This document shows positions 6,497 to 25,431 of a stretch of 64,000 nt of DNA, piece by piece. The number at the start of each line of letters is the position of its first letter. Position 1 is the first letter of the stretch. This DNA is from Candidatus Thorarchaeota archaeon (GTDB taxonomy: Archaea; Asgardarchaeota; Thorarchaeia; Thorarchaeales; Thorarchaeaceae). Where the stretch lies: positions 54,025 through 118,024 of the forward strand of contig RDNZ01000001.1 of assembly GCA_011364905.1 (NCBI GenBank), given 5' to 3'. The notes under the pieces are model-generated. The model searched no databases. It saw only the letters and a list, made by a program, of their open reading frames with translations, and was not told the DNA's origin. Both the position numbers and the translations under genes were made by a program.

Positions 6497-9400
6497 TCTT
6501 CCATCCCTCCAATCTCTTTTAGCAATGCATCTATTTCAGCCTTAGACAGGTTTCGGGCTTGTTCTATCATGAGATCAGCCTCTGTTTCTTCAATGCCCAT
6601 TTTCAATAGACGCTCTTTCAAGTGAAGTAGTTCATCTTCTGAAAGACGCTCCTCAGCAACTTCAGCAGGGACTCCTTCCTCAGCAACCATCTCAGCTTCC
6701 GCAAGTTCTCTCGCCCGACGTGCACGCTCCTGTTTGAGAACCTCATTGATGAATCCAGCTCTCTCACTTGGCCGCATCTTGTCAAGGTCTTGACGTAGAG
6801 TATCAATGTCATCAGGAGTCAAACCGACAACAGTGGCAAGCTGATCTAGAAGCAGTTCGACATCCATTACTGTGACATCAACTGTTGACAGCGCCACATC
6901 TTCCTCTGTCTTCTGGATTCTAATTGGCTTCAAATCATCATTCATCATTGCGAGAAGCATTTGGCGTCTCTGAGGAACATCAGCAGGTTTCGGTATTTTG
7001 CCTTTTGACAGAGACCCTATCATTCTCCTAATGATTCGTAGCAGCTTTGGCACAGATAACACTCTGAAGTATAGTGCGCCTAAGGCAGCGAATAATACAA
7101 GAAGCATTGTGCCATTTCGGAACCATGCGACAAGTGCCTCTTGCTCAGGTGAGAAGCGAGTATAAACGTCAAGATTGACCTCTCCATCTGCATAGTTAAC
7201 CCTGCTTAGAATGATTTTCAAGCTGTAGAGGGCTAACACGGGAGCACGAAATGCGATTGCATATGTTCCATTGTGGTAGTCGATATCAAGTTCTTCCACA
7301 TGAACCAAATTTGCTGTTTGCACATTGTTGCTTGATCGGATTGTAATATCAGCATCCGTGATTGGTAAAGAGTGATCACTGTCGAGATATGTGACATTTA
7401 CGAAGAAGACACGACCGACATAGATAAATTCGGGCAAAGCAGAAGATACTAGCTCCGTCGCAATCCTGCGTATTTTCAAGGAAACATCAATCTCTCCTCT
7501 CGAGTAGTTTCCTCGAGATATGAAAATCCTGATTGTATAATTCTCGTCGCGATATTGTAGTGTTTGACCTAGATTCGCCTCCGTTGGACCGAAGACGTAT
7601 GATCCGTTATTCAAATTGGTTAATTGAACGGCACCAAACTCCCAATATGCAGTAGCAAGACCGTCAGCTATCCAGTTTGCATGAAGGTCATCCCAATAAC
7701 CAAATGTCATCGAGTAATCATCACCTACAGCAAACTCTGCTTCCGTTTTTCCGGTTAGCACGGTCCGAATTGGATTGACAAGCAGTTTCACCAATCCTGA
7801 AGCAAACCGAAAGTTCTCCTTTCGGAAGGAGATGGCTATGTTATGGGGAACAGTTCCTGCCTGAACAAGAGAAGTGTTAACCGTAAGTGAGTATGTACCA
7901 TTGCCATAATCGAATAGCGAACCCTTGAACTGCTCTAATGTGTAGTTAGTAATCGCACCCGGTATTCCCTCGTCAGCATGGATATCATGGAAGACAAGAA
8001 CAAATGTGACTTCCTCCCCATAATATCCACTAAGAGTGGCGTCAGTCACAATAACAATATCAGTATCGACAACTTCAACATTCAAAGTGAATTGGATTGA
8101 TGAAGGCCTATAACCGTCCTTGTCACTCGAGATTATAACAGTCCATTCTTGGACACTAAGATCTGTGGTGTCAATAAGAGCACTGTAATACCCAGGCGTA
8201 CCTAATTCGGTTAAATTCCCGACAAGCGGCCCTACACCATATGAGAGACGGGCACCGAGAACAGGTGTGTTTAGATCTGTATTATTCAGATAAACAGTGA
8301 TATTGGCAATATCACGGAAGTTCACAGTAACGACAAAATCTGAAACAGCTACAAGACTAGTGGAAAGCTCAGTGATTTCAATTGTAAGTTGCATTGATAC
8401 ACTCTTGTAGTTGTCCGAGCTAGCTTGAATGAGAATCTGATGGGTACCTACAGAGGCTCCTGTAACAATAAAGTCCACAACGTATTTTCCATCCGATGCA
8501 GACCACGGAATCTGTCCAGAACCTCCAACCCAACTATAGGTGACCTGACCATTCGTAATTGGTGAGCTGTCAGAGTATATGAGATAATCCACTTGGAGAT
8601 GGACACTCAATCCGTTGACGGTCGAAAGAGGATTGATCGATCCGGCAATTTTTGATGCAATCTTGCCAATTCGAATTTGGAAATCTCTTTGCCTGCTCTC
8701 ATAATTGAGGAGGACGGATCTCACTGTGACTGTGTGTTCACCAGCGACTATCTGCCAAGATTGCACGGTAACATTGTATATACCAGATCCAATATGAGTC
8801 ATGTCGACTGTTATAGTTGAAATAGTCAGATTGACATATGCGCCAACAATGGGAGCTCCAGTTCTAGCATCTGTAACATTGGCTTGGAAATTAATAGAGT
8901 CGCCCCAGGAGGGACTAGTAGGATTAAAGTCTAGCTCAATCTGAACTGGTACAGCTGAAAGGAGAATATCCGCGAGAATTGTATGATTTTGGTGCAAATA
9001 CTTTGAGGCACTTACTGAGAATGAATACAAACCAGCATCCATTCCAGATGTTTGAATCGTCATTTCATAGACGCCGGTGTCAATTTCATGAATTGTTGCT
9101 ATTGTTGGGTAAGTAGCGTTCCAATCACTCAAAACCGTCGCGCCTGGAATACCAACTCCAAATTCAATTGCAGTGTAGGTGATGTTGGCGTGGATTACAT
9201 CTCCCAAGTAGTATGTTACACCTTGAGGCAGGGTGAAGCTAAGAGTCGTTGATACAGAATTAACAACCGCTGAAAAGCTTAGATTTGTTACATTTGTGTA
9301 ATATGGAGAACCATACCAAGTCATATTGGCTGTGAAGAAATACCTGCCCAAACCAGACAATGTTGTGGTGTCTACCAGAATCTGATAAGTGCCATCACCA

Positions 9401-12400
9401 TTGTCAATGATCCAATGCGTGAAACTTGTGGAATTTGCTGACTCTAATGAAACATCTGCCCCGGGGATTCCATTCCCGGTGAGATAGTCCTTGAAGTCAA
9501 GCAAGGCGCTGATATTGAAAAAGTAATACGCTGGTGGAGTTGATAGGACTGAGGCTTGAGTATACCGAGTGGAAATTGTGACTTGAGTGGTTGTCGTGGA
9601 ATTCTCATAATATGGCGTCATGTCGCCCCAGTGGAATTGAATAGTAATTGGGTACGCATCTTCTAGCTCTGAGGATAGAAGTGTAGAATTGAAGGATATC
9701 AAATAGAATCCATCTTGTCCAGTGAGTGTATACTGAGAGTCGAGGATTACTGTGCCTCCTCCATGTGTGATGGTAAGAACAGATTTTGTCAGAGATATTC
9801 TAGTGCTATTCACATCATCCATAACGCTAATCTGGAATTCTACATTGCTCAGGAACGGAGTCGTTAAAGGCGAACGGGTCACCGACAGCGTTGCGTATCG
9901 TCTCACCACATCTATTTGGACATTCGTTATCCTACTCTGATAATATGGTGCGCCTGTTTTGCTTGCTGAGATTGCAATGGTATATTCACCAAAGTTTCCT
10001 AAGGCAAGTGTTGAAATCCTGATGCGATAGTCGCCACCTGTTAGTGAATCAACCCAGTAGTTGACTCCGAGCTGAAGTGTAGCGTTGGAACAGGTCGCAG
10101 TAATGGTTGCGCCATCTATACCCGCGAGTGTGCTATCGTCAAAATAGGACACAAACACTTCAGCTTCCTCCAAGTAGACTGCAAGAGAGGGGACTTCGCT
10201 AGTTAGTTGAGTCCTTCTTTGGATAAGCGTTAGATAGAAGAAGTCAGTGGCATCAAAACAGAAGTTTGTGCCTGTGTAAGACATCGATGCATTGACCGTA
10301 TAGGTTGCCAGTGATGGAAATGCGCTTGTATCAAGAGTCACTGTGAAAGTGCCATCTCCATTGTTTACAACGTTATAGTATCCTAGTAGAGACGCATCTA
10401 GTGTCAAGCTTCCAGTGTTCAACAAGGACTGATCGTCAAGGTCTCTGTAAGTAAAGACGATAACCAAATCATTACCATATTGAATTGAGGTGTATGGTCC
10501 ATGTTCAAGATTCGTGTATCTACTCCGCACGGTCAGTGATATCGGAATGCTGGTTCGGTTCTGGTAGAATGGGGTACCAGTCCACATCACATCGAGATGA
10601 AGTGTGAAGGTTCCAACGTTGCTCCACCATGTTGTATCAAGCTCCAATACATACTCTTGACTACCCGGTAGATAGATAGCGCTAAGAACAAGTCCGGTCT
10701 CCTGAACCTGATAATTCAATTGAGGATCATCGGAAATCGGCAGGCCTGTTAGAACATCGATGTAGGAGAAAGTCAGATTGACATTATCTCCATATGGAGT
10801 GGTTGGGAGAGGTTCCCATAGAATGCTTGTTTGCCTGTATCTGGTATTCACTGCTACGGTCAGTGATCTGTTTTCGTAGAGCGGAAGCTGTCCAGATGTC
10901 CAATTTGCAGAGATTCGAATCTCACATGTAATGATACCGCTAAGATAATTTGTATCGAAGGTTATTTGATATTCTCCATTACCTAGTTCGGAGATCACCA
11001 TCAGGTCTTGGGTTAATGTCTGACCTGGTGTAAGGACTTCAATATAGAAGTGCACATTCAAGGGATAGTCTCCAGTACTATTGGTTATCCCAGTACTGTT
11101 ACTAATGTCCCAATATACAACCGAGAAGGTGACATTTTCCCCATAAGGAGTGGCAACTGGATTCGTTCCTATGTACAAATCAGATGGACTTCCAGCGATT
11201 CTTGCGCTTACCTGCAGCACTTTGTTATCGTGCGCTGGTTGTGGACCAGTCCAATTTGCATAGAGTGTTATATCCTTCCTGCCAATCGACCCCCATTGAT
11301 CAGCTCTTATTCTAACTATGTACTGACCAGCTATTGAACCATTTACAACTGTATACTCAAGTGACGGTACACCCACGGCTTCAGCATAAATCAAGACATT
11401 GCTGCTGACAATTCCTTGTGATGTTGTAATGTCATAATACATCACGTAAATCGTAATTTGACCAGTGTAAGGCGTTGGTTCGATGGGATTATCTAAGGAG
11501 AAAGAAGTCAAATGAGTGATTATATCAATACCAATGCTGAAGGTATGGTTCTGGTAGGCAAAGCGGTTAACATCGAAGACCACGGAGTAGTCCTGAATAG
11601 GATCAGATTCAGCTGAGTAAAACGTTATGCTGTATTCACCTGGTGCACTGGCTGCCACAATGTAACTTGACCAGTTGCATGAGATGGAACTCTCTGCACC
11701 CGATATCGGAAGATCGTGATCAGTATCCCAGTATGTCAGTGTAATGGTTTCTTCATAACCAACTGGGAGAGATATGCCGCTCTGGGAAACTGAAACTGAA
11801 GTGAAGATCTGTCGCACTTCAACAAATAGAAGAACCTGAGAAGTAGTGTAGTAATTCTGCTCTGCTGTGACGACAACCGCATAGGTGCCCAAGTTGGAAT
11901 TTCCTGTAGTAATCGTAAGAGTGTAGTTACCAGGTGCTCCAGCTACTGGATTGACGGTGTAGGATGAATCTGTCCAATTACATGTTAGAACTGCACCACC
12001 AATACCCGCGTCTTCCGAGTCTGCGTAGAAGAGTTCGAGAACTGCATTGTCTCCTCGGGGCACTTGTACCCCAGGAGCACTACTGGATTGTAATGTTGTT
12101 TCTTCAACGACATTTATCACAAAATACGTTTGGAGTGAATCGTAGTACTGCTTACTCCATGAAATGCCTATCACATATCGACCAGGGAGTCCCAAATCTG
12201 CTGTGTTGACAACAACACTGTACTCACCAGTACCCATATCATTCAGGATGCGTGTTCCAGTAGTCCAGTTGTATGTTGCAGAACCTCCTGGAAGGAGAAG
12301 ACCATTATTGGAGTCATTTACACCAATCTGAAGAAGCATATCTTGACCATAGGTGAGATTTCGTTCCCAGGAAGTAACAGATTGCCTGGGATAGGCAATA

Positions 12401-14187
12401 TACATGTCAGATCCATGTTCAATTGTAAACGACCGTGAATACAAACCGATGTTCTCAACGGGACTACCTGAAACAGAATCATTCACGAATGCTTGTACCG
12501 ACCATTGCCCTACTTCAGCTGTGAAGGCATCAAGATTCAAGTCGGTCGTTTCAGCAATCCCTGAAGACACCGTTGCTGCCACTGTGTCCCATAGGTTGCC
12601 CATTGTGTCATAGACGTTGAATGTAACAGTCGCACCGTTGTAAACGGTATCAAGATAGGCTTGGAAGCGAACATTGTCATTAGCCCGATACGTGTTTGTA
12701 GTGACCCAACTGGCACCACTTGACATTCTCAAGTCTTGAATTATGTTCGCTGAATGCCCTGTTATTTTCCAGAATCCATTCTGATAGGTCCCGACAACTC
12801 CATCATAAACTGAAATGTTCAAGCTTGTTGCAGTGGTGGACCAATATGGGAAATTGACGGATGGGAATCGAGGTTCTGATACAGTATCAATAACCAGAGT
12901 ATCAGATTTACTTGCATTGAAGTAGAATAACTGGGAATAACCGTTTGGGACAGCAACGTAATAATATGTAATCCAGTTTACTTGGCTGGCATTACTGGTC
13001 GTGAAGTGAGTGCCCAGACTCTGAACATCAGCTTCATAGAGTGAGGACTGGTCAACTTTTCTTGCATATACCGTCATGTCGACAGAAAAAGTGACACGAA
13101 TATCATCATTAGGGTTGGGATTTACTGGAGTCGGAGTCCAGCTGAATGTTGCATTCACTGCACTTCCACTCCATGGGATAGCTGCAGATTCCTGAACTGT
13201 GCCTAAACTCCATGTAGCGCCATTGGACACGGGAATGCCATTCATTTCCAAGTTTACTTGACTTGGTTGCACTCGAGTCTTTATGAAGATTCTAACATTG
13301 TCCATCCTCACCTCTGGGTAGAGCTGAGGATTGCTTCCGAATGATCTTGTAGTCCTCATTCCAATTTGCAGAATGAAGTTGGATGATGTGATGAGTGAAG
13401 GGTCAGCCTCGATTAAGCCTGTGGAGTACCAAGTTGTTTGTGCAAGAACATCACTGAACTGCATGTCCCACAGATGGTTTGATACATTATCATTGTGGCC
13501 AATTTGAGCGTATAGCTCCCAAAAACCAATGGGCAGACCGCCCCAATTATCATCAACCCAGTAATCAAGTGAAACGCCAACCCATGTGACTTCACCACGA
13601 TTGGTATTGATTGTTTGCTCCGCATACTGTCTATCGCCAAGGTCATGGCGGTAGTAGCCTCCATCCAACACACCGTCCATCTGAAAGCTGACATACCCAC
13701 CAGTTATTGTAGAAGACATAGGATTTGTGTGAGTTGGCAAATCATCATAGCCAGTTGTCCAGTCCGCTGCTGAACCAAAACCGGGGTTGGTAAGATAGGT
13801 TCGATTCTCCTGAAGGTCACTCACACTGATGGATGTGTCAGTACCTTCCCAAAGAGGACCGAGAGGAACAGAAACAGTCTGAGTTGTGGTAGTATTTGTA
13901 GGATAATAAGCAAGGTCCAGGTTTGAGTGGTGATCCGTCCTTTGCCCATATTCCGACACTACCATAGGAGACCCTTCGCCTGAAACTGTTGTTGGGACCT
14001 CAGAAAGAGAATAAGAATTCAGGACCTCATCTGGCCCAACTTCAACGGTCTGACCATTGCCTAGATCTACCTGTTTTGCTCCAGGCGCAGAGGAAGTTGG
14101 GGTGGCATTATGAGTCATAGGGGCTCCAAGACTCACAAGTAGAGACGCCATCACGAGAAATAGAAACAGGGTCCTTTTGACTTTCAT
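6493..14187 (-). CDS. Giant 2564-aa surface protein: signal peptide, Laminin_G_3-like lectin domain, then more than 20 Ig-like/beta-sandwich repeats with many N-x-S/T sequons, a single C-terminal TM helix, and a roughly 200-aa acidic coiled-coil cytoplasmic tail.
   Basis: Single uninterrupted 7.7-kb ORF. The N-terminus MKVKRTLFLFLVMASLLVSLGAP is a signal peptide. The motif RMDNVRIFIKT matches the Laminin_G_3 C-terminal consensus. Repeats of about 100-120 aa carry recurring Y/W/G/D positions. The TM helix is MLLVLFAALGALYFRVL (about nt 7050-7115), followed by a tail ERARRARELAEAEMVAEE...KEIGGMEE. An SD GGAGG sits 8 nt upstream of the ATG at 14196..14200. Confidence 0.85.
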   Translation of the reverse strand: MKVKRTLFLFLVMASLLVSLGAPMTHNATPTSSAPGAKQVDLGNGQTVEVGPDEVLNSYSLSEVPTTVSGEGSPMVVSEYGQRTDHHSNLDLAYYPTNTTTTQTVSVPLGPLWEGTDTSISVSDLQENRTYLTNPGFGSAADWTTGYDDLPTHTNPMSSTITGGYVSFQMDGVLDGGYYRHDLGDRQYAEQTINTNRGEVTWVGVSLDYWVDDNWGGLPIGFWELYAQIGHNDNVSNHLWDMQFSDVLAQTTWYSTGLIEADPSLITSSNFILQIGMRTTRSFGSNPQLYPEVRMDNVRIFIKTRVQPSQVNLEMNGIPVSNGATWSLGTVQESAAIPWSGSAVNATFSWTPTPVNPNPNDDIRVTFSVDMTVYARKVDQSSLYEADVQSLGTHFTTSNASQVNWITYYYVAVPNGYSQLFYFNASKSDTLVIDTVSEPRFPSVNFPYWSTTATSLNISVYDGVVGTYQNGFWKITGHSANIIQDLRMSSGASWVTTNTYRANDNVRFQAYLDTVYNGATVTFNVYDTMGNLWDTVAATVSSGIAETTDLNLDAFTAEVGQWSVQAFVNDSVSGSPVENIGLYSRSFTIEHGSDMYIAYPRQSVTSWERNLTYGQDMLLQIGVNDSNNGLLLPGGSATYNWTTGTRILNDMGTGEYSVVVNTADLGLPGRYVIGISWSKQYYDSLQTYFVINVVEETTLQSSSAPGVQVPRGDNAVLELFYADSEDAGIGGAVLTCNWTDSSYTVNPVAGAPGNYTLTITTGNSNLGTYAVVVTAEQNYYTTSQVLLFVEVRQIFTSVSVSQSGISLPVGYEETITLTYWDTDHDLPISGAESSISCNWSSYIVAASAPGEYSITFYSAESDPIQDYSVVFDVNRFAYQNHTFSIGIDIITHLTSFSLDNPIEPTPYTGQITIYVMYYDITTSQGIVSSNVLIYAEAVGVPSLEYTVVNGSIAGQYIVRIRADQWGSIGRKDITLYANWTGPQPAHDNKVLQVSARIAGSPSDLYIGTNPVATPYGENVTFSVVYWDISNSTGITNSTGDYPLNVHFYIEVLTPGQTLTQDLMVISELGNGEYQITFDTNYLSGIITCEIRISANWTSGQLPLYENRSLTVAVNTRYRQTSILWEPLPTTPYGDNVNLTFSYIDVLTGLPISDDPQLNYQVQETGLVLSAIYLPGSQEYVLELDTTWWSNVGTFTLHLDVMWTGTPFYQNRTSIPISLTVRSRYTNLEHGPYTSIQYGNDLVIVFTYRDLDDQSLLNTGSLTLDASLLGYYNVVNNGDGTFTVTLDTSAFPSLATYTVNASMSYTGTNFCFDATDFFYLTLIQRRTQLTSEVPSLAVYLEEAEVFVSYFDDSTLAGIDGATITATCSNATLQLGVNYWVDSLTGGDYRIRISTLALGNFGEYTIAISASKTGAPYYQSRITNVQIDVVRRYATLSVTRSPLTTPFLSNVEFQISVMDDVNSTRISLTKSVLTITHGGGTVILDSQYTLTGQDGFYLISFNSTLLSSELEDAYPITIQFHWGDMTPYYENSTTTTQVTISTRYTQASVLSTPPAYYFFNISALLDFKDYLTGNGIPGADVSLESANSTSFTHWIIDNGDGTYQILVDTTTLSGLGRYFFTANMTWYGSPYYTNVTNLSFSAVVNSVSTTLSFTLPQGVTYYLGDVIHANITYTAIEFGVGIPGATVLSDWNATYPTIATIHEIDTGVYEMTIQTSGMDAGLYSFSVSASKYLHQNHTILADILLSAVPVQIELDFNPTSPSWGDSINFQANVTDARTGAPIVGAYVNLTISTITVDMTHIGSGIYNVTVQSWQIVAGEHTVTVRSVLLNYESRQRDFQIRIGKIASKIAGSINPLSTVNGLSVHLQVDYLIYSDSSPITNGQVTYSWVGGSGQIPWSASDGKYVVDFIVTGASVGTHQILIQASSDNYKSVSMQLTIEITELSTSLVAVSDFVVTVNFRDIANITVYLNNTDLNTPVLGARLSYGVGPLVGNLTELGTPGYYSALIDTTDLSVQEWTVIISSDKDGYRPSSIQFTLNVEVVDTDIVIVTDATLSGYYGEEVTFVLVFHDIHADEGIPGAITNYTLEQFKGSLFDYGNGTYSLTVNTSLVQAGTVPHNIAISFRKENFRFASGLVKLLVNPIRTVLTGKTEAEFAVGDDYSMTFGYWDDLHANWIADGLATAYWEFGAVQLTNLNNGSYVFGPTEANLGQTLQYRDENYTIRIFISRGNYSRGEIDVSLKIRRIATELVSSALPEFIYVGRVFFVNVTYLDSDHSLPITDADITIRSSNNVQTANLVHVEELDIDYHNGTYAIAFRAPVLALYSLKIILSRVNYADGEVNLDVYTRFSPEQEALVAWFRNGTMLLVLFAALGALYFRVLSVPKLLRIIRRMIGSLSKGKIPKPADVPQRRQMLLAMMNDDLKPIRIQKTEEDVALSTVDVTVMDVELLLDQLATVVGLTPDDIDTLRQDLDKMRPSERAGFINEVLKQERARRARELAEAEMVAEEGVPAEVAEERLSEDELLHLKERLLKMGIEETEADLMIEQARNLSKAEIDALLKEIGGMEE

Positions 14188-14425: not shown

Positions 14426-16669
14426 TTATTCTCTCTTTCGAATTACAATGACACCGACTATTACAATAACGGCTGCAATACTTCCTGCAACGATTATCGG
14501 TGTCAGAATATACGGAGGTGTATTTGTGGTAGTGCTAGTTGGTGTTGATGAAGCCGCACTAAGATGTGTCAAAACTCCTCCTTCTGCTCTATTCATCCCC
14601 CAATCCCAAGCAACCACCCATATAGTAAGATTTGAGGTGTGCTCCAAGAAGGGAACTGACACTGACCAATTATATCCGTTATAAGCCATTGGAAAGCTAC
14701 GAACAACACCATCATCTACCTGAACATAGAGTGTGACATTCTCCAATCCTGCAAGATTTTCGCTAATCATCGCCCAGTAGGTGAAAGGGCCAGTCCAAAA
14801 GTCGCTTGGATTAGTACCTCGACCATATATCGACGGAGGTATGTCATCAATTGACGAAAACATCATTCTTCGAGTCCAATCTCGAGCTTTTACCAAAGCA
14901 CTGTATGCTGAATGCCAGTCCATTTCATTGTAGGAATTTCTTGCAGATTCAAATGAAGCAAGAGCAGCAGATTCCGCGGCATAGGTTACGCCTCTCTCAT
15001 CGGATCGAAGATTGGATTGCTCCTCAAGAAAGTTTGACCATAGAAGAGCTTCCATCTGGTCCAAATAGGTCCCCTGAACCCAGTTCTTCTCAAAAGTGGA
15101 GGTACCGTTGTGTTCAGCAAAGTATCCCATAGGTCCGTAATAGAAGTCACTTGAATAGTGCTCATGTTGCCAAGAGTGCGCAAATCCGATTGCATGCATG
15201 GTCTCATGAAGTTGAGTGGCTGATATTCCATCCTTGGGAGTCACACCATCCGGGCGATAATAACGTTCCCAAGATTTCCAGATGACTGTCTGTCCTCCTC
15301 CACCCAGTCCGGTGTACGCTCTTCCATAGACATGCATTTCCATTTGCTTCTTTATGAAGACAACTCCAAACACATTGATGTTGTCGTCATTAACCACATA
15401 TGCGGGTCTCATTCCACTGTAGATAGCATTAAACATGGACCCACCATCAACAATTGTTGTTCCATCTAAGTTATCTGCGGCGTATGTCCAGAACAGGCTG
15501 TTCCAAGAAGGTTCTTCATCGATGTCTAGATATTGGACATCAACCTCCCATTGAATGAAGGGATAGAGTTCCTCAAGATGCGCCTTTTGCATCTCAGCGT
15601 TGGTCACCCATTCGAGGCTATTGACAGAGGTCCCATCAGCTACATCCATGCAAAACACCAGCACCTTCAGTCTACCAACATCAACATACTTTGCAGGCTG
15701 ATGCTGATATGGGAAAAGTAGTTGGCTGATAGGGTCCCAGATGCACTCTCTCAAGTAAACATTGAGTGCATCTACATCTGCAGGTATGTCTAAGTTGAGA
15801 GATCCCACTTTGTCCTCTAAATCTTGAGTCCAGAAATCGTAAGACGTATTGATTTCTTCGCTCCACCAAACCTTGCACCATTTCAAGTACCACTGATGAG
15901 CACTAGGGTCCACTACATACAGATTATAGCGTCCACCGAAGAACGGATAGTCCATCGTGACATTCGGATTCAGAGCGTTGTCCCACTCCAATCTAAACCA
16001 GTCTTGATTCTGTCCCGTATCAGGATCAAGGGGGTGGTAGTTGTACCAATGTTCCAGACTGTGATCCGCGCTGTCAAACTCCGAGAAATTAACAAGATAA
16101 AGAGTGTACCCAAGATCAGGCGGACTCGTGTATGGATTCTCTTCTAGCCAATCCTCCACTGCATAGCCATCAATGGCACGACCTGCTCGAGGATAGAATA
16201 TTCGTTGTGGTTCGTCGAGGTTGTCCTTCTGATATAGTAGTGCGCTCTCATCAAGGCCTGTCCCTGTTTCGCTTCCATTTATGGAATTGTCAAGCATGAC
16301 TTGGCGAAGTTCGTCGTTGTATGCAGCATCTGCATAGACGATTTGATACTCGATATTATAGGTGATTTGAGCTGCTTCTGTAGAAAAGTTCCTGATTGTT
16401 GGTAAATCCTGTAATAGTAACGGTTCATCAATTAGAGAAGGATCATAACCCACTACGATGATATTAGCTGTCCAGTTTCTCTCAATTGGTTGAGGCCCCT
16501 GACTAAGAGTAGCTTGCTTTACTGGCTGTCTGTGATTATCTTGCACACCAAAAGGAGTGGCAATCACAAGCACTAAAGCAATACCTAGGACAAGAGCACG
16601 ACGCATAGTGTTCCCTGCCTTCTTCACCATATTAACAAACTGGTTCATGTAACCGCAACCAAACCACAT
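14426..16669 (-). CDS. Secreted metzincin-type zinc metalloprotease with a Ser/Thr-rich stalk and C-terminal TM anchor. The true start may be 16630 (MVKKAG...) or 16606 (MRRALV...).
   Basis: HETMHAIGFAH fits the HExxHxxGxxH metzincin zinc-binding motif. The N-terminal hydrophobic stretch ALVLGIALVLVIATPFG is a signal peptide. A stalk SAASSTPTSTTTNTPPY is followed by the TM helix IIVAGSIAAVIVIVGVIVI plus RKRE at the extreme C-terminus. Confidence 0.7.
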   Translation of the reverse strand: MWFGCGYMNQFVNMVKKAGNTMRRALVLGIALVLVIATPFGVQDNHRQPVKQATLSQGPQPIERNWTANIIVVGYDPSLIDEPLLLQDLPTIRNFSTEAAQITYNIEYQIVYADAAYNDELRQVMLDNSINGSETGTGLDESALLYQKDNLDEPQRIFYPRAGRAIDGYAVEDWLEENPYTSPPDLGYTLYLVNFSEFDSADHSLEHWYNYHPLDPDTGQNQDWFRLEWDNALNPNVTMDYPFFGGRYNLYVVDPSAHQWYLKWCKVWWSEEINTSYDFWTQDLEDKVGSLNLDIPADVDALNVYLRECIWDPISQLLFPYQHQPAKYVDVGRLKVLVFCMDVADGTSVNSLEWVTNAEMQKAHLEELYPFIQWEVDVQYLDIDEEPSWNSLFWTYAADNLDGTTIVDGGSMFNAIYSGMRPAYVVNDDNINVFGVVFIKKQMEMHVYGRAYTGLGGGGQTVIWKSWERYYRPDGVTPKDGISATQLHETMHAIGFAHSWQHEHYSSDFYYGPMGYFAEHNGTSTFEKNWVQGTYLDQMEALLWSNFLEEQSNLRSDERGVTYAAESAALASFESARNSYNEMDWHSAYSALVKARDWTRRMMFSSIDDIPPSIYGRGTNPSDFWTGPFTYWAMISENLAGLENVTLYVQVDDGVVRSFPMAYNGYNWSVSVPFLEHTSNLTIWVVAWDWGMNRAEGGVLTHLSAASSTPTSTTTNTPPYILTPIIVAGSIAAVIVIVGVIVIRKRE

Positions 16670-18368: not shown

Positions 18369-18977
18369 CTAGACCTTCACGACCCAATTCACTAGTTCAG
18401 AAGAAAGAGGATTTTCCTCCACAAATAGTTCGCGATATGAAGAATTACTTAACATAATCCATACATTTTGCAATTCAAAATCAAAACCAATGATTTTGAA
18501 TGCTGTTTCGAATGCAGAAGGACGAAACGATATGTAGGCCAAAAACAATGAGCCCAAAAAAATCGCCGCATATGAGTAGATCCAAGGACTGATTGGCCTT
18601 CCAGCCCAGACATCCGCGCCAGCATAGATTAACGCGAATATGGATATGCAAACCATGAGAGATGCAACGAGAATGGATAGAGTCCGTGCCCTCATTTCAG
18701 CGTTATCTGAAATTGTATGGTCTGCACAAACATCAACTAGAAAACTCTTGGTTTCTGCGTTTGCCAGCTGCTGTTCTTTTGTTGCAAGAAACTTTGCATC
18801 GGAGGCTGGATGTAGCCAAATCTTCTTCCTTGGATGCGTCGATATACGTGTGCATGTAGTAGCGGGAGCGCCACAGACAGGACAGGTTTTGGGGAATCGT
18901 ATTCTACTGATTTTCGCTCTCACAATTGGTTCATCAAAATAAACCCTATGTCTTATTGTGCTCAAAAGCTGCATCAC
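18369..18977 (-). CDS. Hypothetical membrane protein with an N-terminal zinc-ribbon (CPVCG...C...CADH) and two to three TM helices.
   Basis: Cys pairs CPVCGAPATTC and VDVCADH precede hydrophobic helices LSILVASLMVCISIFALIYAG and IYSYAAIFLGSLFLAYISF. It is convergent with the upstream gene, with a 1-nt gap. Confidence 0.45.
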   Translation of the reverse strand: MMQLLSTIRHRVYFDEPIVRAKISRIRFPKTCPVCGAPATTCTRISTHPRKKIWLHPASDAKFLATKEQQLANAETKSFLVDVCADHTISDNAEMRARTLSILVASLMVCISIFALIYAGADVWAGRPISPWIYSYAAIFLGSLFLAYISFRPSAFETAFKIIGFDFELQNVWIMLSNSSYRELFVEENPLSSELVNWVVKV

Positions 18978-19035
18978 CAGACCAGAGAACTAGATGTAGT
19001 AGAGTAATTGAGTGTATCGAAGCAGGTAAGTCCTT

Positions 19036-20181
19036 TCATAAGTAGGCTTTCTCAACTTGGTTGTAGAGATAGTGCTTCATGCTATTTGATGCCACTACAG
19101 GTAGGTGTTCGTGTACGCTATCCAACGAGGCTACTTCCTGCGTTTTTAGTGAAAATCCCAACTTTTCGAAACTACCCTTGACCTGCTCTATAGCGTTTCC
19201 GAAATGTCTTATGCCTATCCCTAATGCTTCTAGGATTTTGTAGCCATAGTGCGTGAGCCAGAGAGAGTTCATTAGCGACGTGCTACCCTTTGTAGGGACA
19301 ATTGCATTTTCGATCTCTCTTTTCCGCGCTTCTGCAATTCGTGCAATTAGCCTTGATGCCCTAGTGTTCCTCATCAACTCTGTATCGAGGAAAAGAGTTG
19401 GTCCTCCATGCTCAATCTGTGCATCAAGTAGATCTATCGCTTTGTCAAAAATGGCTCGCTTTGCGGTTCTGTAGTCCATTGACTCCGTTGTGCTTTCAAG
19501 GAGGTTTTTTGGATTGCCATCAAATCCAGCCAATTCTTCCATACCAAAACCCAACATGAGACCTCTTTGAATGGCATACCAATCATTGTTCGATACCTGA
19601 CTCAAGACGGAGAGAATCCTCTGACGGAGGGGTGCCCAATCCATTTTATTTGCGAGGGCATCACAGGATTTCCACATCAGAACTGGTTGCGCAGTCCATG
19701 GAGCTCCATCAGGCCTGACAAGTAAGAGACGCTCTGCCAGTTGGCTTGTTGTGAAGAGGAATCTCAAGATGCTGTCAGAGTAGATCACAACAGATGAGTC
19801 GAGCAATATGTGCGAACGAACAAGTATCGGAGTTATATCCAACTCCTTGAGCCTGTTCTGCGTGAGGTTAAGTCTCTTCAATGCATCACAATCTCCCAGT
19901 GGCCAGAGATTCAGTGACTCTAAATGGTTGTTCTCGACACGCAAATCTATCAGTGTCTTTTGATTCCGTAGTGGCGTTAAATCAAGTTCCTCAAGCATGT
20001 TATTAGATAGGTTGAGGGTCATTAGTTGGCTGCATTCTCTAAGATTCGAGAGATCAACTTTTATGGCCGCTCTCGTCGTCAAATCTACAATCTTGTCATC
20101 TTGCCTATACTTGGTTTCTTCTTGACGTCCGTGTGGACTCCAGTACTTTATTGCGACCTCTTCCATGCAGAACTCAACCAT
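19036..20181 (-). CDS. Cytoplasmic leucine-rich-repeat (LRR) protein with an uncharacterised roughly 250-aa C-terminal domain.
   Basis: Four or five tandem LxxLxLxxNxL units (LSNLRECSQLMTLNLSNNMLEELDLTPL; LIDLRVENNHLESLNLWPL; LKRLNLTQNRLKELDITPI). There is no signal peptide or TM helix. Confidence 0.65.
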   Translation of the reverse strand: MVEFCMEEVAIKYWSPHGRQEETKYRQDDKIVDLTTRAAIKVDLSNLRECSQLMTLNLSNNMLEELDLTPLRNQKTLIDLRVENNHLESLNLWPLGDCDALKRLNLTQNRLKELDITPILVRSHILLDSSVVIYSDSILRFLFTTSQLAERLLLVRPDGAPWTAQPVLMWKSCDALANKMDWAPLRQRILSVLSQVSNNDWYAIQRGLMLGFGMEELAGFDGNPKNLLESTTESMDYRTAKRAIFDKAIDLLDAQIEHGGPTLFLDTELMRNTRASRLIARIAEARKREIENAIVPTKGSTSLMNSLWLTHYGYKILEALGIGIRHFGNAIEQVKGSFEKLGFSLKTQEVASLDSVHEHLPVVASNSMKHYLYNQVEKAYL

Positions 20182-20227
20182 TGATTGATTTTAGCGTCTA
20201 CAGATAAAACTGAGTCCCTAGATGAAC

Positions 20228-23200
20228 TTACTCTTCTGGTGGTAAGGGCGAAGGTAGCTTTGTTTCAGCAGCTATCAGAAAGTCTCCGTCAACTGCTTCA
20301 AGCACCATTTGATGCGCTCTTCTTTCAGTGTATCCAAGAACGCTCGTTGCCTTGATAATTGCGTCAACGGAAACTCCATGGTGAATGTCCATACTATCGA
20401 GCGCAGAAGATACTGGACTAAGATCTTTGGGGAGGTTCCTCTTTACTCCAACGTATCTCTTCATCAACCGCCCATCGAAGTAACTTACGAAGATTGAATC
20501 AAAAGTGTCAGAGAGTGTTGGAGATCGGACCATCTGACGGATTGCATCATCCTGGTGGTCATAAAGTCCGCCGACCTCTCTACTGAATGTTTCAAGTTGT
20601 ACCTTTTGTCTACTAGAGGCAGGTTCTACAGTGATAATGGCGCAAATGAGTGACTCAGTTTGCACTGCTGTGACCACTTCTGTGATAGGAATTGCTGTCC
20701 ACATGGGCTCATCAATTGAGAATTCTGATCGGAATTGAGAAATTGCTGTTATTAGTGAGCTAAGTATGGATTCTTGAAATGCTCCCTTGAGGATATTTGA
20801 GTACACAGGCAGTCCAATTGCACGATGAATGACAAGCAGACCAATTAGATTCTTTGCATCATCAATGCGTCCCTCAAGAGCCAGAAGTTCGAGGTTACGT
20901 CTTGTCATGGTAGTCATATAGAAACGACGGCTGAATGCTATTGCGACTACGGAAATCACGACAATAAACGCCCCAATGAAACCTGCTCTTAGTGTAACCA
21001 CGTAAAGCGACTCCGTCCCCGGGATTCGAATGGTGACATTTACACTATTGCTTTCAAAATAAGGCATGGCAACTTCAATAACGACCAAATATTCTCCAGA
21101 GCCAAAGCCCGTAGAGTTGAAGTCCGCCTCCCACCAGTTTCTAGCATAGTTAGGACTAAACTGAACAATTCCCGAAGTCCAATTACCAGTTACTTGTGCG
21201 TCGCTAAGGATTGAATTGCCGTTATCTTGGTCATAGAGAGAGATGGCAAGCGTGAATTCATCACCAGATTTGATCTCGCGGATTGGCGTCTGAGCTATAA
21301 CGGTGAATTTGTGCAACAAACTAAATTCCGCTTTACCATATCCCACTTCAGTGCCATTGTGCCAGAAGGCACCGACAATCCATTCTCCAACAGTTGAATT
21401 CACAGGGCCAAAAACATCTCCCTGTGTGACTACCGTTGAGTCATTGAAATTATGCAGAACCTCGCTCGCCCATAGGTCACTAGTGGGGAGATACCAACTC
21501 ACCTCAACATTCGTGGCATTTCCAAGTGAATCGTTAGTTGCACCAAGACTAGCAAGACACCTAATTCTGTCTTCATTGTGAAAGATGGATTCGTCAGCCC
21601 ATGTGAGGTCCGACTTGTTTTGAACTTGAGTTGTTAGTTTGTTTACGTAATTTGGTCCGTGCAGAATTATTGTCCACCAACCTGCGGAATTCGCTAAACC
21701 GGAGGCGATGGTTAGTTTCGAATCCTCTACAGACACACTAGGTGTGACATCCTGGCCGAGAGGATTCAAGACCTGCGGATCATTCCAGTCAGATGGGATA
21801 TGCGCGATTATTCCTTTGTCAGCTGCTTCAGGATATGATTGGATATACGTGTATAGAGAAAACTCTGCGTGCTCACCCATTTCAATGACATATGACACTC
21901 CATCATCTTCCAGGTTCATGGAACTCATTGAGTAACTGAAACGGGTCATAATACTGACTTTTGATGAAAATTCAAAGGAAACTGTCGTGTTCGATGAAAA
22001 GGTGAATGGGATAGATGCTTTCTCCCAGAAGGAATAATTCAACAGAATCTCCCCTTGACTAACTGTTCCATATACAGGTAGTGTGCCTAAAGGTGAACAG
22101 CTTACTGTCAGGTCTACTTGTTGCGGACTCGGAGCATTCAGAGCCGTTAGGGAGATATCATCAACAAGAAATGTAAGGAATTGACCATTAGCTGAATCGC
22201 CATCCAAATCAGCGTCGTTTTCATCAATCTGAATGTACGATGAAGGTGTGTCCACTTTCAAGACAACGCGAATTTCAAATTGCGGCGGAGCTTCAGGAAT
22301 TTCCACTTCTAGCGGGCCAGTGGAAAACCAAACTCCTCTCTGTGTCATATTCGTGGGATCTATTGTCCAGTTCCATAGCATTGATGTTCCATTGAGAATC
22401 TCAAAGCCAAATTCAAAAATGTCAGAGTAGTTCAAACCAATTGGTCCTCGCTGATATAGATAGTCCATTGAGAACTCGAATTCTTCTTCCCCCTGACTAT
22501 TGTTGACCATCTGGTACCAATAAATCCGAGTTCCGTCGTAGTGTCGATATCCAACGCCCACTACTTCATAACCCTCGTTCTCAATGGATAGGTATTTGCT
22601 ACCAGTGTCGACATAGGAGGTTCGCTGTCTTCCAGGTGTGTAGAGAATTTCTCGCTGGGCCAACCATCCATCAGCGTAAAATGCTCCATTCCCGGTCCAA
22701 TCAATATTCGCACCAGGATTTCCAGTTTCAAAGGTCCCGTTCAACGCGTAGAGACAATTGAGGTCTCTAATGTCAACCTCGACCTGTTCTGCACTCCAGG
22801 AGTCGTCCCCTGCACAAACGTCATAGCTGAAGGACACTGCTCCAACTGGAACAAGATCTGCACCTCCTGACGAATCGGACAGAGATCCTTCAAACTTGTA
22901 ATAGTGAGAAAGACCTGGTTCATTCCCAGCTAGAGTTTCCAAGTAATCACTCCTAATATCCTCTAAGGGCCTTTCAACTGTATAGTATCTAAAATCATCC
23001 ACATGGCCATCGACCATTGTATCAGGTCGAGCAGCAGAATTCATCAGGTCATTTTCAGACAGAAAACCTACGACTGATCCGACCCATGAAGTTGTAAAGG
23101 CATCCTCCAAAGGTTGAGTGTCTTCATCACCCCAATAGATTGCAATCTGGTTTGATGTGTCATCCCAGGTGATGGCTAAGAAATACCATCGACCAAGTAC

Positions 23201-23794
23201 CCAGTCATTCTTATTCCCCACGATGGTTGTGTCCCCGCCCCAGTCTAATGTAAGGCGATTGTCAACAGACCAACGAGTTTCAAAGTCATAATCCTGCCCC
23301 CAGAACCGTCCAGTGGCTAGGGAACCATCCCATTTTATCCAAAGAGAAATAGTTCCTTGCGGTGATCCGAAGTCGGTTTGGCCACTAACACCGACTAAGA
23401 AGTAACCTCCTGAACAATCGGCAGAGTACCTGTTACCTTGTGAGCCTACAGGAGAGAATGCTTCAGAGCTTGGTTGAGGTGCCGTGTCAGTACGAGCGAT
23501 AGTGTATGGTTGAATCCCAGCAGCTGAACCGAAATGTTCGATAGGAACAGGGTTGAGTATACCAGTTCTTGGTTCCGGGCTTTCAGAAAGGCCATGATAT
23601 ATTCCCTTGGAAAGTCGTATAGGATCTGAGAAGTTGGTTCTTGAAGTCGTTGTGCTTGGAGCTGCTAACGGTGCCCACCCTAACATGCTACAGAGAAATA
23701 GTATCATGACTAGATGGGTCCTTTTCAACCACTGGCCTCCGATGAGAAGCTGGTAACTAGGCCGGAGTTTATGCCACAAAACGCAACTTCCCAA
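20228..23794 (-). CDS. Receptor-like surface protein: signal peptide, Laminin_G_3/ConA-like lectin domain, beta-sandwich domains, one TM helix, and a roughly 300-aa cytoplasmic domain that may be roadblock/LC7-like. The probable true start is 23707 (MILFLCSMLGWAPLAAPS).
   Basis: The LamG-like block is GTISLWIKWDGS...WYFLAITWDDTSNQIAIYWGDEDTQP...VDDFRYYTVERPLEDI. The TM helix is GFIGAFIVVISVVAIAFS followed by RRFY. The cytoplasmic segment NLIGLLVIHRAIGLPVYSNILKG...LITAISQF is loosely roadblock-like. The ORF is 1188 aa. Confidence 0.75.
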   Translation of the reverse strand: MGSCVLWHKLRPSYQLLIGGQWLKRTHLVMILFLCSMLGWAPLAAPSTTTSRTNFSDPIRLSKGIYHGLSESPEPRTGILNPVPIEHFGSAAGIQPYTIARTDTAPQPSSEAFSPVGSQGNRYSADCSGGYFLVGVSGQTDFGSPQGTISLWIKWDGSLATGRFWGQDYDFETRWSVDNRLTLDWGGDTTIVGNKNDWVLGRWYFLAITWDDTSNQIAIYWGDEDTQPLEDAFTTSWVGSVVGFLSENDLMNSAARPDTMVDGHVDDFRYYTVERPLEDIRSDYLETLAGNEPGLSHYYKFEGSLSDSSGGADLVPVGAVSFSYDVCAGDDSWSAEQVEVDIRDLNCLYALNGTFETGNPGANIDWTGNGAFYADGWLAQREILYTPGRQRTSYVDTGSKYLSIENEGYEVVGVGYRHYDGTRIYWYQMVNNSQGEEEFEFSMDYLYQRGPIGLNYSDIFEFGFEILNGTSMLWNWTIDPTNMTQRGVWFSTGPLEVEIPEAPPQFEIRVVLKVDTPSSYIQIDENDADLDGDSANGQFLTFLVDDISLTALNAPSPQQVDLTVSCSPLGTLPVYGTVSQGEILLNYSFWEKASIPFTFSSNTTVSFEFSSKVSIMTRFSYSMSSMNLEDDGVSYVIEMGEHAEFSLYTYIQSYPEAADKGIIAHIPSDWNDPQVLNPLGQDVTPSVSVEDSKLTIASGLANSAGWWTIILHGPNYVNKLTTQVQNKSDLTWADESIFHNEDRIRCLASLGATNDSLGNATNVEVSWYLPTSDLWASEVLHNFNDSTVVTQGDVFGPVNSTVGEWIVGAFWHNGTEVGYGKAEFSLLHKFTVIAQTPIREIKSGDEFTLAISLYDQDNGNSILSDAQVTGNWTSGIVQFSPNYARNWWEADFNSTGFGSGEYLVVIEVAMPYFESNSVNVTIRIPGTESLYVVTLRAGFIGAFIVVISVVAIAFSRRFYMTTMTRRNLELLALEGRIDDAKNLIGLLVIHRAIGLPVYSNILKGAFQESILSSLITAISQFRSEFSIDEPMWTAIPITEVVTAVQTESLICAIITVEPASSRQKVQLETFSREVGGLYDHQDDAIRQMVRSPTLSDTFDSIFVSYFDGRLMKRYVGVKRNLPKDLSPVSSALDSMDIHHGVSVDAIIKATSVLGYTERRAHQMVLEAVDGDFLIAAETKLPSPLPPEE

Positions 23795-23895: not shown

Positions 23896-25431
23896 CTATA
23901 ACAATCCAACTCTCTCATTGAAACTGTTGATCAGTTCATCAATTTTTGGAGTTGTCTGCTGAATCTGCTTCCAGTACTGTGGATAATCATACCACTGACT
24001 GTTTAGCTCATCAAGATCGAAACCCTGTTGTTCAATCCATGTGTAGTACTTCAAATGATGAATCCGCTTTTTGTCGTAATGATTCAGCTCTATCATTGCA
24101 TCAGTCTTTTGCGCAAGGAGATGTCTATTGTAATCTTTGACGCCGTCTAATATTGAATAGGAACCATGTTTGACTTTAGCCTCTCTCAAGCGAGATTGAT
24201 ACATATCCATAGAATCTGTAAAGACAGTAAGAACAACATCATTCTTTGTGAGTTCATAGTACTTAGCAAACTTGATACTCATCAGAAGGTTTGCTATGCT
24301 TGAGATACCCAAGAGGTCGAGCTTGGAGACAATACTCTCAGGGGCACCTATGTCATTAATGAGATATTTGCGACCTTCAGGTTCGTTAAAGAGCCTAATG
24401 AGATTCATTGGGTCCGCATCATCAATTGCAATAATCATATCGGTGTTATGAACGTTCATTATCCATGGTACATGCTTATCGCCGATACCCTCAATCCTAT
24501 GTGCACCATATCCGTTCAACCAGAGTGTTGGACACTGCACAGCCTCTCCAGCTGCAATTTTAGAGGTCGGATAAGTCTGTTTCATGAAGTCTCCAGACCC
24601 AATGGTTCCAGCAGATCCTGTAGTCAGACAAACGCCTCTGTATGTATCGTTGCCTAACTCTTCCTCGAGGACATCTTTCATCGCATTACCAGTTATTTCA
24701 TAGTGCCAGAGATAGTTCCCGAATTCGCTGAACTGATTGAAGACGAAGACATTGTCCCTTGTGGCCTTGAGTTCTGCCACTTTGTCGTAAATTTCTTTGA
24801 CATTACTCTCGCTGCCGGGAGTCTTGATGATCTCCCCGGCAACAGTCTTTAACCAGTCAAACCGCTCTTGACTCATTTCTTCAGGGAGGATTGCAACGCT
24901 TTCACAAGCGAGGAGTGTCGCATCGTACGCACCACCTCGGCAGTAGTTGCCAGTAGATGGCCAAACTGCTTTGTGAATGGTGGGATCAAATTGACCAGTC
25001 ACTAGGGGAGGAACAAGACAGCCAAATGCAGCTCCGACTTTGTGAGCTCCTGTCGGGAACCACTTACCTACAAGAGCGATAATCCTTGCTTCCACACCAG
25101 TAATCTCAGGTGGGATCTCCATGTAGTTTGGGAGGGGTTGAAAGAGACCTCCCTTTTCGCGAGGTTGGTTCTTCCAAGTGATTCTGAACAGGTTTTGCGG
25201 AACGACATCCCAGAGCCTGATGCTAACAAGCTCTTTCTTGATCTGATCAGGAATCTTTCGTGGGTCCTTCATCTGTTCGAAGGTGGGAATCACAATGTTT
25301 CGTTCTTTACAACGTTGAACAGTTCGCTTGAGTTGCTCTTCATTCTTTTTTAGGTCAATCATGCTGCAGTCCTCACGTGAAGTCACACAGGACCAAACCC
25401 ACTCAGGCAAAAGGGTTTCGGCGCGGCTCAA
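23896..25431 (-). CDS. PLP-dependent enzyme of fold type II (TrpB/cysteine-synthase/threonine-synthase superfamily) with a roughly 130-aa N-terminal extension. Substrate unknown.
   Basis: The PLP-lysine motif FPTGAHKVGAAF resembles the TrpB HTGAHK motif. The glycine-rich phosphate-binding loop is TTGSAGTIGSG. The 511 aa length is longer than canonical TrpB or CysK. Confidence 0.55.
   Translation of the reverse strand: MSRAETLLPEWVWSCVTSREDCSMIDLKKNEEQLKRTVQRCKERNIVIPTFEQMKDPRKIPDQIKKELVSIRLWDVVPQNLFRITWKNQPREKGGLFQPLPNYMEIPPEITGVEARIIALVGKWFPTGAHKVGAAFGCLVPPLVTGQFDPTIHKAVWPSTGNYCRGGAYDATLLACESVAILPEEMSQERFDWLKTVAGEIIKTPGSESNVKEIYDKVAELKATRDNVFVFNQFSEFGNYLWHYEITGNAMKDVLEEELGNDTYRGVCLTTGSAGTIGSGDFMKQTYPTSKIAAGEAVQCPTLWLNGYGAHRIEGIGDKHVPWIMNVHNTDMIIAIDDADPMNLIRLFNEPEGRKYLINDIGAPESIVSKLDLLGISSIANLLMSIKFAKYYELTKNDVVLTVFTDSMDMYQSRLREAKVKHGSYSILDGVKDYNRHLLAQKTDAMIELNHYDKKRIHHLKYYTWIEQQGFDLDELNSQWYDYPQYWKQIQQTTPKIDELINSFNERVGLL

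Follow-up and report, generated by a model that had tools for sequence, protein, structure and literature searches.

Gene A and its surface architecture

The stretch analyzed here (the window) comprises 64,000 nucleotides of contig RDNZ01000001.1 (positions 54,025 to 118,024; assembly GCA_011364905.1) from a Candidatus Thorarchaeota archaeon. It harbors three consecutive minus-strand genes, designated A, B and C, and the analysis centers on the cytoplasmic tail of the large surface protein encoded by A, which is predicted to carry a longin-type domain. The open reading frames (ORFs) of the three genes extend over 20228-23794 (1188 aa), 19036-20181 (381 aa) and 18369-18977 (202 aa), as was already described in an initial annotation made from the sequence alone. 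The base composition of the window is uniform (40-47% GC).

Gene A (20228..23728) probably starts at TTG 23728, because most homologues are 1150-1170 aa long and a GGAGG motif lies 7 nt upstream of this codon. The resulting product is a type I membrane surface protein of 1166 aa; the ORF remains open back to TTG 23794, and residue numbers of A given below refer to this 1188-aa version. From hydropathy and translation, a putative signal peptide with a KR n-region, a hydrophobic core and the motif AAPS was assigned (23654..23728). It is followed by a Laminin_G_3 domain with a concanavalin-like jelly-roll (Pfam PF13385; aa 140-280, 22955..23377), which was recognized above the cut-off (E 6.2e-7, 30.1 bits versus 27.6) as had been proposed. 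This N-terminal LamG region is confined to A orthologues, whereas paralogues align from aa ~310 of A onward in blastp comparisons. Blastp of ectodomains also delimited a conserved core of ~600 aa (21005..22801).

Apart from the hydrophobic signal segment, A contains one transmembrane (TM) helix (aa 937-955, 20930..20986; hydropathy score 2.53), in line with the initial annotation, and its homologues have a TM helix at the equivalent position. An Arg-rich stretch directly after this helix follows the positive-inside rule. Moreover, all 18 N-x-S/T sequons of A precede the TM helix; the tail has none, although ~4-5 would be expected there at the density of the ectodomain. The cytoplasmic tail thus delimited spans 233 aa (aa 956-1188) instead of the approximately 300 aa estimated initially.

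Two giant proteins are encoded on the minus strand nearby, one of 2564 aa (6493-14187) and one of more than 2165 aa that is cut by the start of the window (2-6496); they are ~32% identical to each other. The suggestion that A shares its Laminin_G_3 domain with these giants had to be abandoned, as neither of them matched the Pfam model even at E 0.1. What is shared instead is the region behind LamG, with residues 401-909 of A aligning to residues 165-663 of the 2564-aa giant (E 7e-9), and the ectodomain core of A therefore appears to be distantly related to the N-terminal part of the giants. Possession of a cytoplasmic domain does not set A apart from them either, since in the 2564-aa giant ~185 cytoplasmic residues follow a TM helix (aa ~2358-2379); this tail is acidic and helical and is unrelated to that of A. 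A further membrane protein of 747 aa (14426-16669, minus strand) has a signal segment, a C-terminal TM anchor and no Pfam match. It carries the motif HETMHAIGFxH, which corresponds to the metzincin zinc-binding consensus HExxHxxGxxH and recurs in its orthologues at 11 distinct loci of the syntenic block described below. This protein is probably an unannotated surface metalloprotease.

Predicted fold, conservation and spread of the tail

To describe the tail of A, an AlphaFold2 model was built from 22 fairly similar sequences, the alignment of which has a mean column identity of 60%. The model reached a predicted local distance difference test score (pLDDT) of 82.5 and a predicted template modelling score (pTM) of 0.75, and mean pLDDT was 79-82.5 over the five models. 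According to DSSP, the predicted elements are E28-35, E41-46, H52-69, E79-81, E86-90, E94-100, H106-123 and H127-150. The chain would thus begin with a juxtamembrane helix (aa 957-982, 20849..20926; helix 2-27 of the model), continue with two strands, a helix, three strands and two to three helices, and end with a compact beta-alpha-alpha-alpha-beta unit. The central part (aa 983-1105, 20480..20848) has the order beta-beta-alpha-beta-beta-beta-alpha-alpha of the roadblock/longin superfamily and contains, in the model, a five-stranded antiparallel sheet in longin order. The alternation of hydrophobic residues in the sequence matches the predicted strands. In addition, the nearly invariant motifs KGGFQE, SQFRxEF and IPITE, all of surface type, were identified in the tail.

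In structure comparisons, the model was significantly similar to solved longin domains. Roadblock proteins entered the ranking below the longins, at rank 35 (MglB, score 8.7), with the Asgard roadblocks 9jue, 8yqk and 7f8m scoring 8.6, 8.0 and 7.8, and their alignments spanned fewer residues (88-99). The model therefore supports a fold of the roadblock/longin superfamily for the tail. The resemblance to roadblock/LC7 folds that had been noted for this stretch thus holds at the level of the superfamily, whereas the closer relationship appears to be to longins. The small C-terminal domain (aa 1108-1175, 20270..20473) was predicted with a pLDDT of 87-94, and the last 70 residues of A seem to resemble a winged helix.

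Conservation within A was compared over 43 orthologues of the short form. Mean identity was highest in the longin segment (70.5%), followed by the juxtamembrane helix (66%), LamG (63%), the winged-helix-like unit (59%), the ectodomain core (52%) and the TM helix (42%). Since the longin segment is the best conserved region of A, the strongest constraint acts on the cytoplasmic side. Overall, 82 homologues of A were scored, all with at least 42% identity, and those that are named belong to Thorarchaeota or bear other Asgard labels ('Sifarchaeia', 'Promethearchaeota' and one 'Odinarchaeota'). When each GTDB species was represented by a single genome, a scan yielded 34 loci, all from metagenome-assembled genomes (MAGs) labeled as Thorarchaeota or Asgard, and the window accordingly stems from a Thorarchaeota-type Asgard archaeon. 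Among these loci, A occurs in a short form (~1166 aa) and a long one (~1560 aa), which alternate between lineages whose neighboring genes are close; at L019, for example, B is 64% identical but A only 44%. This suggests that A was replaced like a cassette or recombined among variable surface paralogues. The one or the other form occupies the same chromosomal position at L019, L022, L025 and L029 versus L005, L007 and L008.

To follow the tail beyond A, a tail profile was run in an exhaustive HMMER search over 1.84 billion cluster representatives. At E <=1e-3, 198 representative proteins were matched, 125 of them at E <=1e-10. In 91 of 102 near-complete matches the tail ended at most 40 aa from the C-terminus, and a TM-like segment was present just upstream of it in 79 of 94. 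Full-length tail-bearing proteins reach 2342 aa, and nearly all of the large ones (55 of 58) have the ectodomain core of A in common, as detected by blastp. On this evidence, the tail appears to cap ~100 distinct large surface proteins of Thorarchaeota. More distant relatives (whole-library E 1e-5 to 1e-9) combine a Big_1/MG2 Ig-like ectodomain, a TM helix and a basic stretch with the same motif pattern, and one of their clusters includes a Lokiarchaeia 'Ig-like domain-containing protein'. An hhalign comparison of the Thorarchaeota tails with this Big_1/MG2 group extended over 222 columns (probability 99.1%, E 4e-19) and thereby confirmed homology across the whole tail. The tail is accordingly a reusable module of Asgard-type archaea that is found mostly behind surface proteins.

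Several tail-bearing loci showed additional features. A soluble archaeal relative of 1021 aa (P0345; L041 6001-9066) combines an FG-GAP/BBS2-BBS7-like propeller, DDRGK, PCI, a domain homologous to the A tail and a zinc ribbon, an unusual eukaryote-like set within a single protein. Two tail-bearing genes are arranged in tandem at L035 (3-1478 and 1579-6738), and a stop-to-stop ORF of 231 residues lies directly downstream of the paralogue both there (6797-7489; DUF4332/helix-hairpin-helix) and at L033 (4718-5410). On the complete Thorarchaeota chromosome CP070658, a tail match was found in an ORF of 267 residues that lacks an upstream ectodomain (L024 5845-6645), and no homologue of B, C or the two enzymes that flank the genes in other genomes (PALP and ACS, see below) was detected in the 12.6 kb examined there. 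A separate 'partial' A homologue of 1046 aa (P0066) is recorded on the same chromosome; the tail ORF at L024 may be a split copy, a pseudogenised copy or an assembly problem. Finally, the window encodes a HisKA/HATPase_c histidine kinase (50958-52217, minus strand) that has a very similar counterpart at L032 (7115-8404, minus strand), the HATPase_c match scoring 71.1 bits in both. The L032 kinase adjoins a tail-bearing paralogue of 1864 aa, which may be a coincidence or a recurring neighborhood.

Genes B and C

Gene B (19036..20166, minus strand) likely starts at ATG 20166 and encodes 376 aa, with an ORF that is open to ATG 20181. The protein consists of N-terminal leucine-rich repeats (LRRs; 19771..20061), namely four repeats of ~23 aa and a capping strand, and an alpha/beta domain of ~245 aa (19039..19770) without a detectable relative. 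As a single sequence B stays below the Pfam cut-off (LRR_8, 21.4 versus 27 bits). The profile of the B family, however, matches solved LRR proteins (best E 3.6e-19, positions 36-132), and many B orthologues carry precomputed Pfam LRR_4/LRR_8 assignments. The description of B as an LRR protein with an unassigned C-terminal domain of about 250 aa was thereby substantiated. Hydropathy revealed neither a signal peptide nor a TM helix, and B is therefore considered to be cytoplasmic. Its C-terminal domain was modeled confidently (pLDDT 91.8, pTM 0.87), yet no solved structural relative was found. A profile search with this domain returned ~125 clusters with one single architecture, in which the domain stands behind the same LRRs, and every named cluster is of Thorarchaeota type. 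B is a lineage-specific cytoplasmic LRR protein with a C-terminal domain of possibly new fold.

Gene C (18369..18977, minus strand) encodes a membrane protein of 202 aa with a cytoplasmic CxxC...CxxH motif, two TM helices (aa 99-117 and 133-151, 18525..18683; hydropathy) and a conserved C-terminal segment. The motif CPVC ... VCxDH (18717..18884) forms a putative zinc site of C32, C35, C84 and H87, each of which is conserved in at least 90% of 20 orthologues. Curated Pfam models gave rubredoxin-like and zinc-finger matches below threshold only. The earlier view of C as a zinc-ribbon protein with two TM helices agrees with these data, and the zinc-ribbon fold itself we infer from the motif. At L038, the position where C would be expected (6853-7194) is occupied by an unrelated cysteine-rich protein of 113 aa (CWEARNCG ... 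VCWAVAGT ... CIMCDFY).

Possible roles of the tail and comparison with known systems

Longin and roadblock domains are central to the recruitment of small GTPases to membranes in eukaryotes, and Asgard archaea are searched for precursors of such systems. For A, the reading to which we give a probability of roughly 0.55 is that it belongs to a family of variable, adhesin-like surface glycoproteins in which the conserved tail, with its longin-type and small C-terminal domains, serves as a common docking module for a cytoplasmic partner. In favor of this reading, no other part of the protein is conserved as strongly as the tail, which is shared by ~100 different ectodomains. The family would comprise N-glycosylated type I surface proteins, mainly of Thorarchaeota and in many paralogues. 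Their outward ectodomain would vary, with LamG and the 600-aa core in A and the core together with variable Ig-like extensions in the paralogues. A single TM helix would connect these ectodomains to the juxtamembrane helix, the longin-type domain and the winged-helix-like domain, and through the tail all of these surface proteins would be tied to one and the same partner in the cytoplasm. By analogy with, to our knowledge, every characterised longin or roadblock domain, we infer that the tail would form dimers on which a small GTPase, or a second longin/roadblock protein, would dock, either of them encoded elsewhere in the genome. Such docking would control where the surface proteins are placed, how they are sorted or how they are coupled outside-in, and C would be an accessory membrane protein with a Zn motif.

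Several points weigh against this reading. Pfam scans of window ORFs of at least 150 aa and of small intergenic ORFs detected no GTPase, roadblock or longin family, which agrees with the initial remark that the window lacks a GTPase, and no gene of these three kinds lies beside A or beside seven paralogue or variant loci. The proposed partner of the tail is drawn purely by analogy, and some longin domains, for example in SNAREs, work without GTPases. Sequence and profile searches against Pfam, NCBIfam and PDB linked the tail to no longin or roadblock family; over the 22 tails, the sole longin-related Pfam match was one to Fuz_longin_1 (E 0.11), and Robl_LC7 did not appear. The fold is taken from one AlphaFold2 model built on fairly similar sequences, the pLDDT of which falls to 64-66 in the central helix (residues 51-70), and the winged-helix assignment is a tentative one drawn from the order of the predicted elements. 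Lastly, A and B are adjacent in most testable loci, with which a functional link between the two is compatible.

Of the alternatives, a purely structural role survives best, although we regard it as unlikely. A would then be an envelope or adhesion protein, and its longin-like domain would only oligomerise or anchor it, with neither a GTPase nor signaling involved. Consistent with this, the locus lies among giant surface proteins and a membrane-anchored metzincin-like protease, no GTPase is encoded nearby, and the short and long forms of A are swapped among close lineages like variable surface antigens. Roadblock/longin domains are, moreover, intrinsically dimerisation modules, the dimers of which act as GTPase platforms (PMC10933270). 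A mere anchor, however, would need neither ~230 residues conserved above the level of the ectodomain nor the near-invariant motifs KGGFQE, SQFRxEF and IPITE. Furthermore, the occurrence of the same domain in the soluble propeller-DDRGK-PCI protein argues for a role in protein interaction beyond anchoring. Were the tail no more than an oligomerisation anchor, the finding would add modestly to the known cases of domain shuffling in Asgard archaea.

The initial annotation favored a transmembrane sensing/signaling module of A, B and C. Spelled out as a dedicated module, LamG would sense a ligand, the tail and the LRR protein would regulate a GTPase encoded at a distance and the Zn-ribbon protein would be a third subunit. 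Its proposal had been tied to longin or roadblock similarity of the tail and to a conserved neighborhood, and both were found. The three genes lie on one strand with gaps of 46-61 bp, A and B are adjacent in ~24 species-level loci (A identity 42-92%), and the longin-type tail and the LRRs of B are both common GTPase-associated folds. The conserved arrangement is, however, not specific to A, B and C. It is part of a larger syntenic block with the order PPDK, PALP enzyme, A, B, C, ADP-forming acyl-CoA synthetase (ACS), 747-aa membrane protein and giant, in which the flanking housekeeping genes are as conserved as the A-B-C neighborhood.

The components of the proposed module also occur apart from one another. 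At L038 and L039, the most divergent B loci (B 35-37% identical), the order is PPDK-PALP-B-ACS without A or C, and PALP and B are separated by 14-25 bp on the same strand. Since PALP adjoins B in these deep-branching Thorarchaeota, the oldest conserved neighbor of B is the PALP enzyme and not A. PALP is a cysteine-synthase-like PLP enzyme of ~490-510 aa with extra N- and C-terminal segments and 76-89% identity (window 23896-25431, minus strand; L038 4047-5510; L039 2575-4038). C is absent at L009, L015, L018 and L021. At L015 A and B are interrupted by three metabolic genes of mixed orientation (an oxidoreductase, a TPP enzyme and an MFS transporter). L016 begins alike, but its contig runs out after the first two of these genes and a truncated third ORF. 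Conversely, A paralogues with the same tail (L030 and L032-L036) have unrelated neighbors and neither B nor C nearby.

Pairwise distances point in the same direction. B, C, ACS and the 747-aa protein correlated with each other at 0.77-0.90 (B, C and ACS alone at 0.84-0.90), whereas the A tail correlated with these four at only 0.27-0.52, because the short and long A forms alternate among lineages with close neighbors. In a mirror-tree style test, which is weak as it is confounded by phylogeny and paralogue replacement, no A-B signal was detected beyond that of an unrelated neighbor (partial correlation 0.43 for A tail and B, 0.52 for A tail and the 747-aa protein). A TATA-like TTTTATCT element ~20-25 nt upstream of the first ATG of B is compatible with, and suggests, a promoter of its own; a scan for bacterial-type promoters and terminators was uninformative, with counts at the level of shuffled sequence. 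Together with the lack of a GTPase in the window, these results leave the sensing module as a doubtful reading. A three-gene signaling module is not demonstrated, and gene order alone cannot support an interaction of A and B. B and C are conserved neighbors in a lineage-wide syntenic block; they may interact with A, although nothing here marks them as obligate partners.

It is very unlikely that structure prediction misled the longin assignment and that the tail is instead an unrelated alpha/beta domain, as the shallow alignment, the moderate confidence in the central helix and the missing support from Pfam, NCBIfam and PDB profiles are countered by the consistent pLDDT of all five models and by the hydrophobic alternation that suits the predicted strands. 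Equally improbable is a membrane-tethered one-component regulator, in which an outside ligand would shift the oligomeric state and the winged-helix-like domain would bind DNA: it draws on the beta-alpha-alpha-alpha-beta order and high pLDDT of the last 70 residues and on a weak Crp-type helix-turn-helix match (E 0.036), which was obtained for only 1 of 22 tails, while the winged-helix fold class is itself tentative, the winged helices of trafficking proteins in Asgard archaea and eukaryotes (ESCRT-II, PCI) usually have proteins as their ligands, and it would be odd for transcription factors to come as ~100 paralogous giant surface proteins.

By carrying a predicted longin-type domain on the inside of large surface proteins, the family provides a concrete and testable physical link from the cell surface to a trafficking-type platform, and the 233-aa tail and the 245-aa orphan domain of B are well-defined baits for interaction and structural studies. 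The relevance for Asgard cell biology and eukaryogenesis is moderate. More speculatively, the A family could represent a receptor-like surface class of Asgard archaea whose longin platform would wire adhesion or ligand binding to small-GTPase or trafficking-type machinery. Membrane-anchored longins (SNAREs, SR-alpha/SR-beta, cargo-adaptor coupling) might then have a prokaryotic forerunner in this class, with the LRR-orphan protein as a new type of regulator or effector; this extension is rather improbable.

Longin homologues were previously reported in Loki- and Odinarchaeota but not in Thorarchaeota, for which TRAPPC3 was described (PMC10933270). Liu et al. listed 130 asCOGs of the roadblock/LC7 superfamily with many lineage-specific fusions. 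Most Thorarchaeota MAGs contain one of these families, which is NPRL2-like ('longin plus small C-terminal domain'); a fusion to transmembrane surface proteins was not mentioned (10.1101/2020.10.19.343400). In a full-text literature search, the coverage of which is incomplete and which is thus no proof of novelty, no account of a longin tail on the cytoplasmic side of a surface protein was found. Since the tail family is invisible to Pfam and PDB sequence searches, domain-based inventories that use such models probably miss it.

The closest counterparts of the predicted tail are the longins of eukaryotes and Asgard archaea (TRAPPC2/sedlin, Sec22b, VAMP7, Ykt6, the N-terminal domains of AP sigma/mu, SRX of SR-alpha and Lokiarchaeota 8yqg), with which the model shares the order beta-beta-alpha-beta-beta-beta-alpha-alpha at no detectable sequence similarity. 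The longins of SNAREs and SR-alpha are held at membranes, as is the tail of A. The topology of longin SNAREs is reversed, however, as the longin of A stands C-terminal to the TM helix, behind an extracellular domain of 900 aa. The A tail also differs from known longins by the extra juxtamembrane helix before and the winged-helix-like domain after the longin part, and a partner GTPase for it is not known. Roadblock/LC7 proteins (MglB, LAMTOR2/3 and 7f8m and 9jue of Thorarchaeota/Prometheoarchaeum) score below longins against the tail and are small soluble dimers, whereas the longin of A is the tail of a surface protein. From the NPRL2/NPRL3-like longins of Thorarchaeota MAGs, only the longin part aligns with the A tail, and none of the 22 tails gave a match to the Pfam NPR2/NPRL models with the E threshold relaxed to 10. 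The A family is membrane-anchored behind a large ectodomain, a layout that is not mentioned for the NPRL2/NPRL3-like proteins (10.1101/2020.10.19.343400). B resembles Roco and LRR-GTPase proteins in its type of cytoplasmic LRR, and the Roco protein of Chlorobium tepidum is among the top PDB matches of its LRR profile. It has no Roc GTPase or COR domain, though, and its sequence behind the LRRs lacks a Walker A motif on direct reading as well as a structural relative. On its outer side, A agrees with bacterial and archaeal Ig-like/LamG adhesins (Big_1, MG2, Laminin_G_3) in the signal peptide, the jelly-roll/LamG and Ig-like modules, the many sequons and the C-terminal membrane anchor. The cytoplasmic part of such adhesins is normally a short stub or missing altogether, whereas the tail of A is a folded unit of 233 aa and the most conserved part of the protein.

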